A stretch of DNA of 23,078 nucleotides, taken from contig CAZHSZ010000012.1 in NCBI GenBank assembly GCA_964535425.1, forward strand, positions 1-23,078, read 5' to 3'. The position numbers were made by a program, and so were the translations under genes. The notes under the pieces were generated by a model. The model did not search any database and was not told the DNA's origin. It saw nothing but the letters and a program-made list of their open reading frames with translations. Positions 4,003 to 11,120 of this stretch are shown piece after piece (position 1 is the stretch's first letter; every line of letters starts with the position of its first letter). This DNA is from an uncultured Candidatus Saccharibacteria bacterium (GTDB lineage Bacteria; Patescibacteriota; Minisyncoccia; Phycocordibacterales; Phycocordibacteraceae).

Positions 4003-4514
4003 AAAAAGGACCCGCACTTACGCTGATACTTTCAATACTCGTCGCGCTCGGAGCGCTTGGCGGCTACCTGTTCTGGTATTACCTGATGCAGGGATTGCGT
4101 GCCGAAAGCGCGCAGCTTGAAGCCGATATCCTCGCGAAAGAAGGGGAGCGCGGCCGCGCGGCATCAGCGCGCACCTCTGAGGACGACCTGCTCGCGCAAG
4201 AGAACTTCATCGCGTCCCACTTGGTGAAGACGGCCGACATCGTGTTGTTCCTTGAAAGAATCGAAGGCACCGGCAAGGCGTTTGGCGCTACCGTGCAGGT
4301 AGCCTCCCTGTCGGGTGAGGGGAAGACCTCGAACGGAAAAATATCCCTCTCACTTTCAATTACGGGAACGTTCGACGCCGTTATGCGCACGCTAGGCTCC
4401 ATAGAGAACGGACCGTATGCGAACATGGTGAGCGACCTCACGCTCGACACGCCGGACAAAGGCCAGACGTGGAGCGCTACCGGAGTGTTCGTAGTCGGAA
4501 CGGAACTGAAATAA
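3999..4514 (+). CDS. PilO-like pilus assembly protein
   Basis: 171 aa with an N-terminal TM helix, a coiled-coil segment and a C-terminal domain. It has an ATGA overlap with pilN. The call rests on position and architecture, not on strong motifs. Confidence 0.5.
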   Translation: MKKGPALTLILSILVALGALGGYLFWYYLMQGLRAESAQLEADILAKEGERGRAASARTSEDDLLAQENFIASHLVKTADIVLFLERIEGTGKAFGATVQVASLSGEGKTSNGKISLSLSITGTFDAVMRTLGSIENGPYANMVSDLTLDTPDKGQTWSATGVFVVGTELK

Positions 4515-4515
4515 T

Positions 4516-4827
4516 ATGGACCCGCTCAAAAAAATCACCGCATCGCTCCAAAGCTTCCTGAAACCGCAGGGAACGAAGCGGCTGAACCCGGCGCGCGACT
4601 GGATGTTCGTGCTTGCTTGCGGCCTCGCGCTTATCCTTGCGAGTATGCTCTGGAACGCATGGTTCTTTTTTGCGGTCCTCACTGAGGATAAAACCATACA
4701 GACGCCTGCGGCTCCCCAGGAAGTGGATGCAAGCTCATTCCAAAAGGCGCAAGAGCTCTTTCAGAAGAGGGAAGCTGAAGAGGCACGGTATAAAACGGAA
4801 TACCGCTTTGTTGACCCATCGCATTAA
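4516..4827 (+). CDS. small single-TM protein, fourth gene of the pil operon
   Basis: 103-aa ORF starting 1 nt after the PilO stop, with the TM segment WMFVLACGLALILASMLWNAWFFFAVL. Confidence 0.5.
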   Translation: MDPLKKITASLQSFLKPQGTKRLNPARDWMFVLACGLALILASMLWNAWFFFAVLTEDKTIQTPAAPQEVDASSFQKAQELFQKREAEEARYKTEYRFVDPSH

Positions 4828-4845
4828 GCTCGTAAGAACGAGCTT
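4826..4845 (+). terminator. weak hairpin at the end of the pil operon
   Basis: The hairpin aagctcgt-aaga-acgagctt has an 8-bp stem overlapping the stop codon. There is no T tail. Confidence 0.3.
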
Positions 4846-4919
4846 GCTACCTGCGTTCGCTCGAATACCTATCTGAAGCAGATATGTATTTCTCACTCAC
4901 TTGGTAGTAAGGTATTTGG

Positions 4920-4991
4920 GCCTCCATAGCTCAATGGATAGAGCTGCGGACTTCTAAGCCGTCGATCTTGGTTCGATTCCAGGTGGAGGCA
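4920..4991 (+). tRNA. tRNA-Arg (anticodon UCU)
   Basis: Acceptor gcctcca/tggaggc, anticodon loop cTTCTaa and T arm cttgg-ttcgatt-ccagg. One mismatch closes the anticodon stem. Confidence 0.85.
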
Positions 4992-5004: not shown

Positions 5005-5089
5005 GGGCATGTGGCGGAACTGGTATACGCTGTCGTCTCAGAAGCGGCTGGAGCAATCCATGGGAGTTCGACTCTCCCCATGCCCACCA
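5005..5089 (+). tRNA. tRNA-Leu (anticodon CAG) with encoded CCA
   Basis: Acceptor gggcatg/catgccc, anticodon loop ctCAGaa, long variable arm and T arm gggag-ttcgact-ctccc. The 3' end reads a-CCA. Confidence 0.9.
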
Positions 5090-6657: not shown

Positions 6658-6673
6658 CCCGAAACATATCGCG

Positions 6674-6720
6674 GTGGCGCTGGGGCTCGACTAACCGCCC
6701 GTGCTTTTCTTAGCGCCCAA
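6674..6720 (-). other. tRNA-like minihelix or degenerate tRNA fragment downstream of tRNA-Val
   Basis: The minus strand reads ttGGCGCT-aagaaaagcac-GGGC-ggttagtcga-GCCC-c-AGCGCC-ac. The acceptor-like stem equals that of tRNA-Val (gggcgct/agcgccc), and tcgagcccca equals tRNA-His 10516-10525. Confidence 0.45.
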
Positions 6721-6725
6721 AAGCG

Positions 6726-6751
6726 AAAATCCTAGCTTACGCTAGGATTTT
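6726..6751 (-). terminator. hairpin terminator of tRNA-Val
   Basis: The hairpin aaaatcctagc-ttac-gctaggatttt has an 11-bp stem. On the minus strand it is followed by cgcTTTTg. Confidence 0.7.
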
Positions 6752-6759
6752 CGTCTTTG

Positions 6760-6832
6760 TGGGCGCTAGAGGACTCGAACCTCTGACCTGCCCGGTGTAA
6801 ACGGGATGCTCTACCAACTGAGCTAAGCGCCC
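6760..6832 (-). tRNA. tRNA-Val (anticodon UAC)
   Basis: The minus strand reads GGGCGCTTAGCTCAGTTGGTAGAGC...ttTACac...AGAGG-TTCGAGT-CCTCT-AGCGCCC-A. Confidence 0.9.
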
Positions 6833-9893: not shown

Positions 9894-9975
9894 GCCCAGG
9901 TGTTGAAATTGGTATACAAGCTACCTTGAGGTGGTAGTGCCGAAAGGCGTGGAGGTTCGAGTCCTCTCCTGGGCA
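9894..9975 (+). tRNA. tRNA-Leu (anticodon GAG)
   Basis: Acceptor gcccagg/cctgggc, anticodon arm ctacc-ttGAGgt-ggtag, long variable arm and T arm ggagg-ttcgagt-cctct. Confidence 0.9.
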
Positions 9976-9980
9976 CACAT

Positions 9981-10020
9981 AAAAAGAATGTCCGACGCGG
10001 GAGCGTCGGCTTTCTTTTTT
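9981..10020. terminator. bidirectional terminator after tRNA-Leu(GAG)
   Basis: The sequence aaaaaga...ccgacgc-ggga-gcgtcgg-c-tttctttttt has an A tract upstream and a T tract downstream of the hairpin. Confidence 0.7.
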
Positions 10021-10147
10021 GTGGCACCAGGAGAGGACTCGAAAGCGAGTGCGTAGACCGGTTCAGCAGAACCGGTAGCGCGAGCAGGGCCGAGAAATTT
10101 CTGCGAGCGACGGCGAGCAGAAATGTTCTTGGCCGAGCCTCTCCAGG
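10021..10147. repeat. tRNA-3'-end-mimic structured element, copy A
   Basis: 10027-10043 is the exact reverse complement of tRNA-Leu 9956-9972. There are internal hairpins at 10037-10050, 10057-10076 and 10097-10124. The closing arm 10138-10147 pairs with 10027-10036. Conserved blocks are shared with copy B. Confidence 0.7.
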
Positions 10148-10191
10148 ACACTTTTCTCGCTATACACATCCCCAAACTCCTCCTTCTGCAC

Positions 10192-10197
10192 TACAAT
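10192..10197 (+). promoter_or_regulatory. -10 box TACAAT, 6-nt spacer to ATG at 10204
   Basis: The sequence reads cTACAATaaaaaaATG. Confidence 0.4.
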
Positions 10198-10203
10198 AAA
10201 AAA

Positions 10204-10395
10204 ATGAAACAGCGCCTCCTCAAAGCTCTTGAAGTTTCGCTTGAGTGGCGCATCATCGCGTTCGTCATTACGGAACTTTTCCTCTGGGCTACCACCGGCG
10301 AGCTCTGGCACGCGACGATGCTTGCGGTGGGCCTGCAGGCGGTATTGTTCATCGCGTACTTCGGCTGGTACTTCGTTCGCGAGACGCATCCGTAG
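10204..10395 (+). CDS. small membrane protein, DUF2061-like
   Basis: 63 aa. The sequence LEWRIIAFVITELFLWATTGELWHATMLAVGLQAVLFIAYFGWYFVRE resembles the DUF2061 pattern (tWR...TG...YY.hER). Confidence 0.55.
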   Translation: MKQRLLKALEVSLEWRIIAFVITELFLWATTGELWHATMLAVGLQAVLFIAYFGWYFVRETHP

Positions 10396-10460: not shown

Positions 10461-10534
10461 GGCGGCTTTAGCTCAGCTGGTAGAGCACCTGGTTGTGGTC
10501 CAGGCGGTCGTGGGTTCGAGCCCCACAAGTCGCC
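10461..10534 (+). tRNA. tRNA-His (anticodon GUG) with genomically encoded G-1
   Basis: G-1 precedes acceptor gcggctt/aagtcgc and the discriminator is C. The anticodon arm is cctgg-ttGTGgt-ccagg and the T arm is gtggg-ttcgagc-cccac. Confidence 0.9.
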
Positions 10535-10541
10535 CAGAAAT

Positions 10542-10578
10542 AAAAACCGGATGAGGAGCATCCGGTTTTTCTATTTTT
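10542..10578. terminator. bidirectional terminator after tRNA-His
   Basis: The hairpin aaaaaccggatg-aggag-catccggttttt has a 12-bp stem and is followed by ctattttt. Confidence 0.8.
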
Positions 10579-10706
10579 GCGGACGACTTGTGGGGCTCGA
10601 AGGCGAGCGCGGGCACCTTTCCAGCAGGGAAGGTCGCGCGAGCAGGGCCGAGCGGAGCTAGGAGCGACGGCGACGAAGCGAGCGCTTGGCCGTGCCCACA
10701 AGCCCC
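10579..10706. repeat. tRNA-3'-end-mimic structured element, copy B
   Basis: 10584-10601 is the exact reverse complement of tRNA-His 10515-10532. There are hairpins at 10595-10608 and 10615-10634. The blocks GCGCGAGCAGGGCCGAG, GAGCGACGGCGA and TTGGCCG are identical to copy A at a constant offset. The arm 10695-10702 pairs with 10587-10594. Confidence 0.7.
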
Positions 10707-10716
10707 GTATTTCTGC

Positions 10717-10722
10717 TACACT
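10717..10722 (+). promoter_or_regulatory. -10-like box TACACT, 8-nt spacer to mscL ATG at 10731
   Basis: The sequence reads gcTACACTctcctcgtATG. Confidence 0.4.
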
Positions 10723-10730
10723 CTCCTCGT

Positions 10731-11120
10731 ATGAAACTCATCGAAGAATTCAAAGCGTTCGCGATGCGCGGCAACGTCATCGACCTCGCTTTCGCAGTCA
10801 TTATCGGCACCGCGTTCGGCAAGATAGTCTCCTCGCTCGTCGAGGACATCATCATGCCGCCCATCGGCTTCCTTATCGGCGGCATAAACTTCTCCGACCT
10901 TGCGATATCGCTTGAGACGGGAATCGGTGCGCCGGTACTCATAAAGTACGGCGTTTTCATCCAGGCGCTGTTTGATTTCCTTATCGTTGCGTTCGTGCTC
11001 TTTATGGCGCTCCGCCTCCTGAACAAGCTTCAGAAACCGAAGGAGGCTCCGGTAGAGGCTCCGAAGAAGAGCGAAGAACTCCTCGTGCTTGAGCAGATTC
11101 GCGATTCCCTTAAAAAGTAA
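10731..11120 (+). CDS. mscL: large-conductance mechanosensitive channel
   Basis: 129 aa. [40 protein letters not shown] is the canonical MscL N-terminus. Confidence 0.9.

Follow-up and report, generated by a model that had tools for sequence, protein, structure and literature searches.

What kind of element can fill the space directly behind a tRNA gene while carrying two copies of that gene's own 3' end, one inverted and one direct? The question is raised by a 23,078-nucleotide stretch of DNA (the window hereafter) from an uncultured Candidatus Saccharibacteria bacterium, where two related elements, termed E1 (10021-10151) and E2 (10576-10706), each follow a tRNA gene and its hairpin. The answer to which we give about an even chance is that E1 and E2 are integrated copies of a family of non-coding, non-autonomous integrative or mobile elements that reside at tRNA 3' ends and have a structurally constrained core. 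This answer starts from direct observations: a family of homologues with a conserved fold and a strand bias, arms that behave as copies made at the DNA level, reproducible repeat boundaries, arrays, relics, and replacement at the level of strains.

Two elements in the window and their relatives

The unit reads, from 5' to 3', as tRNA, trailer hairpin, arm A, a core of ~90 nt, and arm D. The tRNA segment from the T loop to the 3' end (the last ~20 nt) is termed T; A is its inverted copy together with the trailer, A' is the reverse complement of A, and D is the direct copy. The folded non-coding element measures ~115 bases and the whole insert ~175 nt, with no gene. ARAGORN finds six tRNA genes in the window. 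The parts of the two units are given below, with P1 to P4 for the helices of the conserved fold, A1 and A2 for the family alignments, and R1 for the covariance model.

9894-9976, plus strand: tRNA-Leu(GAG) (ARAGORN; Rfam tRNA model, 49 bits)
~9959-9975, plus strand: T of tRNA-Leu(GAG), from G57 to the discriminator, master copy for both E1 arms
9977-10020, plus strand: trailer and hairpin ("H-upper") after tRNA-Leu, a canonical bidirectional intrinsic terminator with its stem at 9992-10009, then a T-tract
10021-10043, plus strand: E1 arm A, tRNA positions 54-76 inverted; the final GAA is the complement of T54-C56
10044-10134, plus strand: E1 conserved core (A1/A2 with covariation; R1, 109.8 bits)
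10045-10052 with 10078-10085, plus strand: E1 P2, tandem G.A inside
10057-10064 with 10069-10076, plus strand: E1 P3, loop AGCA
10086-10087, plus strand: E1 joint J, AG
10088-10096 with 10126-10134, plus strand: E1 P4, invariant G.U inside
10105-10116, plus strand: E1 P4 tip, GAGCGACGGCGA
10135-10151, plus strand: E1 arm D, GAGCCTCTCCAGGACAC, tRNA positions 57-76 in direct orientation, partly decayed; closes P1 with A
10462-10535, plus strand: tRNA-His(GTG), master copy for the E2 arms (ARAGORN, Rfam)
10536-10575, plus strand: trailer and terminator hairpin of tRNA-His, stem 10542-10570
10576-10601, plus strand: E2 arm A, tRNA-His 3' end inverted
10602-10691, plus strand: E2 conserved core (R1, 113.2 bits)
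10603-10610 with 10636-10643, plus strand: E2 P2 (alignment and covariation)
10615-10622 with 10627-10634, plus strand: E2 P3 (alignment and covariation)
10646-10654 with 10683-10691, plus strand: E2 P4 (alignment and covariation)
10662-10673, plus strand: E2 P4 tip (alignment and covariation)
10692-10706, plus strand: E2 arm D, GTGCCCACAAGCCCC

Much of this layout had been noticed in a preliminary description made from the sequence alone, and its geometry holds. Positions 10027-10043 are the exact reverse complement of 9956-9972 (17 nt), and the repeat extends to 29 nt (9956-9984 with 10015-10043, 86% complementary). The distal arm at 10138-10147 pairs with 10027-10036 at 9 of 10 positions. 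The same layout recurs after tRNA-His, where the arms at 10515-10540 and 10576-10601 are 88% complementary over 26 nt, and the hairpin between tRNA and element is terminator-like at both E1 and E2. The two elements have in common a 60-nt block with 77% identity and the exact blocks GCGCGAGCAGGGCCGAG and GAGCGACGGCGA, neither of which occurs in the window outside E1 and E2; an R1 search of the window likewise returns only these two copies. One part of the earlier account does not survive. It had included a downstream promoter and a small membrane-protein gene in the unit, and in other genomes tRNAs or unrelated genes come next.

Relatives were sought by scanning one genome per GTDB species for the exact pattern CAGGGCCGAG-N(4-30)-GAGCGACGGCGA. 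The scan returned 75 stretches, among which the true homologues are those with a gap of 9-10 nt; the rest are chance matches within GC-rich genes of other phyla. Homology searching of this kind had been proposed at the outset, and it yields ~40 further copies in metagenome-assembled genomes (MAGs) of Saccharibacteria, Paceibacterota, and Kaiser-, Adler-, Nomura-, and Komeilibacteria. In 30 of these copies ARAGORN places a tRNA directly upstream on the same strand at constant spacing, specific for Leu (four anticodons), Tyr, Arg (three), Trp, Ser, Val, Met, Asp, or His; this recurrence behind 30 tRNAs in other genomes excludes a chance origin, as had been argued from the window. Within those loci R1 detects more divergent copies, and inspection of tRNA tails adds many variant copies (type B) along with genuinely empty tRNAs. 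Altogether the family is located behind more than 20 tRNA species in Patescibacteria MAGs, and one locus (L045) holds four elements inside 8 kb. In the sampled loci an R1-detectable element follows 39 of 84 tRNAs, a share that is higher with variant subtypes counted and that is biased upward because the loci were chosen for carrying the element. An R1 search of ten IMG/VR loci found no copy. A metagenome scan with the start of mscL, the gene after E2, returned only two close relatives, both filled.

The view that no known RNA family is present stands after searches of the window and 17 related loci with Rfam at gathering and permissive thresholds. At the gathering threshold of Rfam 15 tRNAs alone pass in the window and 16 related loci, with no match over a type B copy, and at permissive E-values type A and type B copies give only chance hairpin matches (microRNA families; DUF3800-VIII on the terminator). 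The gene for tRNA-Leu(GAG) at 9894-9976 is itself unlisted at the gathering threshold and scores 49 bits in the permissive pass (threshold 29), a filter effect that matters wherever tRNAs are counted with cmscan defaults.

The fold of the core and the origin of the arms

The conserved fold was derived with RNAalifold from alignments A1 and A2 of 39 copies and compared with 500 shuffles and with slid controls. It is a three-way junction of P1, P2/P3, and P4. P1 joins the inner ends of the arms, GGACTC with GAGTCC. P2 (GCGAGCGC with GCGCGAGC) has tandem G.A pairs inside, with Watson–Crick pairs instead in five copies, and, beyond an internal loop, passes into P3, whose 8-bp stem carries an A-N-N-A loop. 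P4 (GGCCGAG with CUUGGCC) starts after a two-base joint and continues through a variable stem, of which there are two subtypes, to a tip that is probably of the form GA-GC-loop-GC-GA; a G.U pair in P4 is kept in 38 of 39 copies. Paired cells make up 91.6%, against 75.8% in shuffles and 33-42% in slid controls, and double-sided changes number 227 cells against 77 in shuffles. None of the 500 shuffles reaches the observed values.

The fold also has a polarity. Over P2, P3, and P4a there are 31 G.U against 12 A.C combinations, besides the conserved G.U. The plus strand folds better than the minus strand by energy in E1 (-72.7 vs -60) and by z score in E2 (-4.42 vs -1.35). The tRNA-sense strand is the structured one, as RNA or single-stranded DNA. 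The covariation check that had been called for thus replaces the fold drawn earlier with a three-way junction: the first hairpin of that drawing (10037-10050) is not conserved, and covariation instead pairs 10045-10052 with 10078-10085. The 12-nt loop of the same drawing (GAGCGACGGCGA) keeps its place at a hairpin tip and is probably closed as GA/GC/loop/GC/GA. P1 has to be set apart from the other helices. Its apparent covariation is explained by the fact that both arms copy the local T loop and stem, and as proof of an RNA helix it is confounded.

Tandem G.A pairs flanked by G-C pairs (5'-GGAG with 5'-CGAC, or CGAG with CGAG) recur in three helices: the trailer hairpin, P2, and the P4 tip. 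They are present in P2 and the P4 tip of all copies and in the trailer hairpins of L008, L034, L045, L022, L030, L048, L053, L019, and L026. The recurrence may point to a shared motif for protein binding or for folding.

The arms are copies of the neighboring tRNA. Arm A is the reverse complement of tRNA positions 54-76 and extends through the trailer; T, hairpin, and A form one hairpin with arms of ~40 bp. Its junction with the core reads GAA, the complement of T54-C56, and GCA in tRNA-Met genes with a TGCAAGT loop. Arm D copies G57-76, often perfectly, and in the general layout reaches 1-4 nt beyond the discriminator. Among 24 loci, 20 have a D that stops 0-7 nt after the acceptor stem; the remaining four, which show tandem or partial second copies, have an extension of 21-46 nt. 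Comparing the outer arms with the adjacent tRNA, another check suggested earlier, shows that they differ between copies and follow the local tRNA. Over a 13-nt identity window (T-stem 3' strand, acceptor 3' strand, discriminator) the mean number of identical positions is 11.5 for T and A', 11.1 for T and D, and 10.4 for A' and D, a star-like pattern around T. Because both identities with T exceed that between the arms, the arms track the tRNA and not each other. In the window A is identical to T at 13 of 13 positions in both E1 and E2, and D of E1 at 11 of 13.

The copying took place at the DNA level. At G.U positions of the tRNA, A is the Watson–Crick complement of the 3'-strand base in 20 of 20 cases and of the 5'-strand base in none (20 vs 0), which rules out A as a copy of tRNA 5' strands of the kind expected from a degenerate tandem tRNA. 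Both window elements conform, at the G49.U65 pair of tRNA-Leu for E1 and the G4.U69 pair of tRNA-His for E2. Mismatches in the arms have no clear wobble bias (8 G.U vs 7 A.C for A:T; 18 vs 13 for A:D). Some copies with an excellent core have one badly decayed arm, such as D of L073 and L063 (6/13). Two features of A are less simple. It carries one or two extra bases opposite tRNA positions ~70-73 in 17 of 30 loci, and in some subtypes an extra hairpin stands exactly at its acceptor/T-stem boundary, where nucleotides 8-48 leave a real tRNA.

Canonical terminators are found in 3 of 28 trailer hairpins, all three from the window's lineage. The other 25 are not canonical, and co-transcription with the tRNA is therefore probable for most copies elsewhere. 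A strict finder places a terminator after D, which would bear on whether D is the original tRNA end, at only about one locus in four. For read-through RNAs the predicted fold is a swapped one, in which T pairs with A and D with the tRNA 5' strands, at -143.3 and -141.6 kcal/mol against -126.4 and -120.4 for the domains folded separately, a preference of 17-21 kcal/mol in energy models that leave out tRNA tertiary folding and co-transcriptional order. One trailer type is widespread: the tRNA-Leu(CAA/TAA) trailers of L002, L017, L023, L047, L062, and L073 form a hairpin with an internal loop (ACAGTTRAG-stem-loop-stem-CGATTACTGT) that spans six lineages of the Candidate Phyla Radiation (CPR) regardless of core subtype.

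Turnover and the explanations weighed

Several patterns among the copies point to mobility. Tandem copies are found at L034 (with a 176-nt unit), L020, and L022, and arrays of mixed subtype stand behind one tRNA at L055, L008, L054, L018, and L006. Cores are not clustered by tRNA, and nearest relatives sit at different tRNAs. Within one MAG the cores behind tRNA-Arg(GCG) (L019) and tRNA-Leu(CAA) (L062) are 90% identical, including an unusual CCTAG junction, while their hairpins and arms differ, and type B cores of L091 share 82-88% identity with those that follow tRNA-Phe and tRNA-Tyr genes of other MAGs. The window also holds a probable relic behind tRNA-Val(TAC) (6759-6832):

6673-6758, minus strand: hairpin, 9 nt of A (TGGGCGCTA, 6719-6711), AGAAAAGCACGGGC..GGTTAG, and D-like TCGAGCCCCAGCGCCACC (6690-6673)

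Here the terminator hairpin reaches 9 nt into the acceptor 3' strand, a degenerate D-like copy lies ~20 nt beyond, and most of the core is missing. The tail is probably an element with a deleted core, for which alignment to intact tRNA-Val elements is only suggestive.

Closely related strains differ in what they carry. In L052, from a related MAG with an identical mscL start, tRNA-Leu and E1 are present and E2 is absent. There mscL is abutted by a very different tRNA-His allele, without terminator or element, and the position of the E2 arm D relative to the mscL start is that of the tRNA-His 3' end in L052. Among contigs encoding an identical L19 protein, five match the window exactly. L091 and L094 carry a different core subtype at the E1 site (R1, 31 bits vs 110); their tRNA, hairpin, and A are identical up to GGACTCGAA, and host DNA is identical again from CTATACAC. 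At the E2 site L091 has a second hairpin, arm, and type B core on the tRNA side, followed by GAGCC-TA-GGCTCGAA-GGCGAGCGC|TTGGCC-D, with the old element reduced to GAGCC-TA-GGCTC. This arrangement would fit a tRNA-proximal insertion, then collapse of the D-hairpin-A palindrome and deletion between two GCGAGCGC repeats of the old core.

Two side observations concern these loci. In L052 an open reading frame (ORF) at 4419-4973 on the minus strand overlaps the tRNA-His start and has a weak HNH_3 match (E = 6e-4, below the Pfam cut-off); together with the tRNA-His allele it may be an endonuclease-plus-tRNA cassette. In L095, L098, and L100, which also encode the identical L19 protein, unrelated DNA takes the place of the tRNA-Leu region directly after rplS, a second insertion polymorphism, and it includes an ORF that resembles a LAGLIDADG homing endonuclease, judged from its sequence only (...GLMATDGCLSSDGRHLDLTSKDREQL...).

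A mobile element is the best-supported explanation because of the extent and boundary of T and D, the arrays and relics, the lineage without E2, and the strain-level replacement of subtypes. Among the ideas put forward in the preliminary description, a DNA-level footprint at tRNA 3' ends fares best, and it does so for the arms, which are DNA-like in their G.U positions, in their lack of wobble bias, and in their star-like relation to T. On this explanation a recombination or duplication event at the T loop of the tRNA would have left T and D as its two halves, in the manner of attL and attR, with the 3' end of the gene restored. Arm A would make the attachment sequence double-stranded once one strand folds on itself, giving a rod that has the small hairpin and the core at its opposite ends, comparable to the folded attC of an integron or the attP hairpin of CTX phage. 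Copies would be gained beside the tRNA, accumulate in tandem, and decay as palindromes collapse, deletions arise between short repeats, and A and D drift. The core would be held by selection on the fold of the tRNA-sense strand, whether RNA or single-stranded DNA, and is presumably the part recognized by a trans-acting factor. What we infer from the pattern is the way in which recombination proceeds, the folding of the attachment site, and the presence and kind of an enzyme.

Several results weigh against a mobile element. The surroundings of the copies and the window as a whole contain no recombinase, transposase, HUH nuclease, or reverse transcriptase, and all-against-all clustering of ORFs in the flanks of ~40 loci gives housekeeping families only. 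No copy was found in phage, plasmid, and IMG/VR collections, and no excised form was seen, nor a clean empty site with the same tRNA allele, the L052 allele being different. The cores of E1 and E2 are identical at 67 of 86 positions, and copies within a genome are thus too divergent for a recent burst, and the likeness of cores between loci could reflect gene conversion instead of movement. A simple duplication of the att type leaves unexplained the inverted arm A, its one or two extra bases, and the hairpin at the acceptor/T-stem boundary. This hairpin and the extra base beside the first acceptor-like pair look like tRNA mimicry at the RNA level, and most copies are probably co-transcribed with their tRNA and could act as RNA. 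Mobility and a role as RNA would be compatible, in analogy to introns, which are both mobile and structured RNAs. A further, unlikely possibility is that a single-stranded, rod-shaped molecule of ~175 nt, either RNA or DNA, hijacks enzymes of tRNA processing or of host recombination, and that the unit is its integrated or tandem form. The tRNA 3'-end sequence would make up its stem, between the small hairpin at one tip and the three-way junction at the opposite tip. Excision would be precise since T and D both resemble tRNA 3' ends before processing sites, with A aligning the ends as a nicked helix, and the molecule would be re-joined and re-inserted at tRNA genes, its targeting arms re-derived from each tRNA occupied.

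The main rival, possible if somewhat unlikely, is an RNA useful to the host that is co-transcribed with the tRNA and freed by RNase Z and RNase P as a mimic of the top half of tRNA. A and D would form the acceptor- and T-like helices and the three-way-junction core would replace the T loop, and the product could bind a protein or serve tRNA metabolism. The deep conservation, covariation, and sense-strand bias of the core speak for such an RNA, as do the same tandem G.A pairs in trailer hairpin, P2, and P4 tip, the extra hairpin between acceptor-complement and T-stem-complement in several subtypes, an unpaired base that often lies just before the first acceptor-like pair, in the manner of RNase P sites, and the preponderance of trailer hairpins that are not canonical terminators. 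The arms speak against it: the outer part of P1 is kept no better than the likeness of each arm to T, D is badly decayed in L073 and L063, and there is no wobble bias. Many tRNAs of the same species lack an element, relics and subtype swaps occur, and canonical terminators stand upstream of both window copies. The same terminators, which come before A, count against an RNA switch, the cis-acting function raised in the preliminary description, in which A would pair either with the tRNA 3' half, leaving the precursor inactive, or with D, freeing the tRNA, while the core acts as a sensor that biases the choice. Such a switch is thermodynamically possible, and A is indeed unable to pair with T and D together. 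The predicted preference of read-through RNAs for the swapped fold favors it, and so does the layout of the core, a three-way junction closed by a P1 helix being common among aptamers. It is nonetheless improbable. The energy models are blind to tertiary folding of the tRNA and to co-transcriptional order, neither A:T nor A:D has wobble bias or compensatory evolution of its own, one of the two partners is decayed in many loci, and the tRNA species and downstream genes are too varied for a single ligand logic.

Hardly probable either is a passive by-product without function or mobility, in which terminator hairpins grow into the tRNA gene by quasi-palindrome correction (template switching). It would account for A as the exact complement of T that continues the hairpin through the trailer, and the tRNA-Val hairpin reaching into the acceptor strand without an intact core speaks for it; it leaves unexplained D, the fixed junctions at T54 and G57, subtype replacement, and a ~90-nt core with invariant blocks and covariation across distant CPR classes, and for the core it is largely refuted. 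The most improbable explanation, also raised in the preliminary description, is a separate minus-strand small RNA carrying a copy of the tRNA 3' half and ending at the shared bidirectional terminator. On the minus strand A does read as an intact T loop, T-stem 3' strand, acceptor 3' strand, and trailer, then the terminator. That strand folds worse in both elements, however, the conserved G.U and most wobbles turn into A.C mismatches on it, and the extra hairpin between T-stem and acceptor 3' strands has a tRNA-like position in the plus orientation only.

A few further features of the window lie outside the elements. At 10186-10206 and 10713-10733, before a DUF2061-like gene and mscL, there are -10 boxes (TGn-TACAAT and TGC-TACACT) ~10 nt upstream of the ATG, and transcripts of both genes would be leaderless or almost so; these intergenic stretches differ less between the window and L052 than the coding sequence of the DUF2061-like gene does. 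The gene for tRNA-Leu(CAG) (5005-5089) is the only one in the window with an encoded CCA and has a plain 13-bp terminator. The other five end in N73 followed by CA(A)-type trailers without CCA.

Comparison with known systems

Genomes of the CPR (Patescibacteria) are very small, and they contain little mobile DNA and few non-coding RNAs of known kinds. A structured element without an Rfam match fills the space behind a large share of the sampled CPR tRNA genes; it fits none of the known families tested, and full-text literature searches found no description of it. If mobile, it would be an unusually small tRNA-associated integrative element, with the puzzle of how inverted and direct copies of each new target arise. 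If a host RNA, it would be a new tRNA-linked class specific to a major bacterial radiation. On either reading it is a marker of strain-level turnover with a defined covariance model for metagenome surveys, and annotators of tRNA genes and islands should beware of tRNA 3'-end fragments and pseudo-att sites.

Among RNAs, the closest parallels are tRNA-like molecules such as the tmRNA domain, YrlA, the t-elements of plant mitochondria, and viral tRNA-like structures. They have in common with the present family acceptor- and T-like helices of real tRNA sequence, a connector hairpin at the 7/49 junction in some subtypes, and a discriminator-like 3' end, sometimes followed by CCA. The present family differs in having no mimic of the T loop or D loop and an acceptor-like helix that is often decayed. 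ARAGORN calls no gene at 10021-10166 or 10576-10712, the Rfam tRNA model (RF00005) matches the real tRNAs only, and the tmRNA model (RF00023) gives the element no score. Against a T-box riboswitch, there is no RF00230 match, the downstream genes are unrelated, and the complementarity of A covers at least 20 nt of the encoded 3' end and trailer, not NCCA. A riboswitch for the downstream membrane-protein genes was rejected on the varied downstream neighbors, often tRNAs, and a retroviral-type primer-binding site on the complementarity of A to the encoded trailer, not to a CCA end. For 5S rRNA, signal recognition particle RNA, hammerhead ribozymes, group I and II introns, and retrons, all suggested by the layout with its three-way junction, GAAA junction, and bulged A, the defining motifs are absent, with no Rfam match and no adjacent reverse transcriptase.

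Small mobile DNAs offer other parallels. Like miniature inverted-repeat transposable elements (MITEs), REP/REPIN sequences, and the PATEs of the IS200/IS605 family, the copies are small, non-autonomous, intergenic, hairpin-rich, multi-copy, orientation-specific, and prone to decay. In a MITE, however, the termini are conserved, whereas here the termini vary with the local tRNA and the interior is conserved, the reverse arrangement. There are no conserved terminal repeats and no short, fixed target duplication, the flanking repeat being ~17-24 nt of tRNA. Copies within the same genome are divergent (67/86 for E1 and E2), and the sampled flanks hold no HUH, RAYT, or TnpA gene of the sort that accompanies REP/REPIN or PATE families.

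The attC sites of integrons and the attP(+) of CTX phage, the latter recombined by XerCD, offer a parallel in form. In both, structure is kept while stem sequences vary, one strand is specific, imperfect palindromes carry extra bases on one arm, the site is non-coding with its enzyme encoded elsewhere, and two inverted target-like copies can fold into a duplex that mimics the target. Here, unlike those sites, the arms copy the neighboring tRNA. Alignments A1 and A2 contain no GTTRRRY-type core or dif-like sequence, and the flanks no integron integrase or array platform.

Integrative elements and genomic islands at tRNA genes that use the T-loop sublocation, with the attL and attR of tyrosine integrases and with integrase-less derivatives such as cis-mobilizable elements (CIMEs), come nearest. 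An extent from C56|G57 to just past the discriminator is typical of such integrators, and here 20 of the 24 loci have a D that starts at G57 and reaches 0-7 nt beyond the acceptor stem. Common to both are an insert bounded by direct repeats of tRNA 3'-end sequence, a tRNA kept whole because the insert supplies or duplicates its 3' end, and the addition of new copies next to the tRNA and in tandem. The present insert is unlike them in its size of ~175 nt without gene or integrase, in placing one core behind more than 20 tRNA species, in its additional inverted att copy, and in its RNA-like covariation; no tyrosine or serine recombinase recurs near the ~40 loci or is present in the window. In its working the family thus appears to resemble most a miniature integrative element of tRNA genes whose attachment site would fold, set apart from the known ones by its size, its conserved structured core, its inverted arm, and its range of tRNA species, and there is a real chance that it represents something further removed from known kinds.

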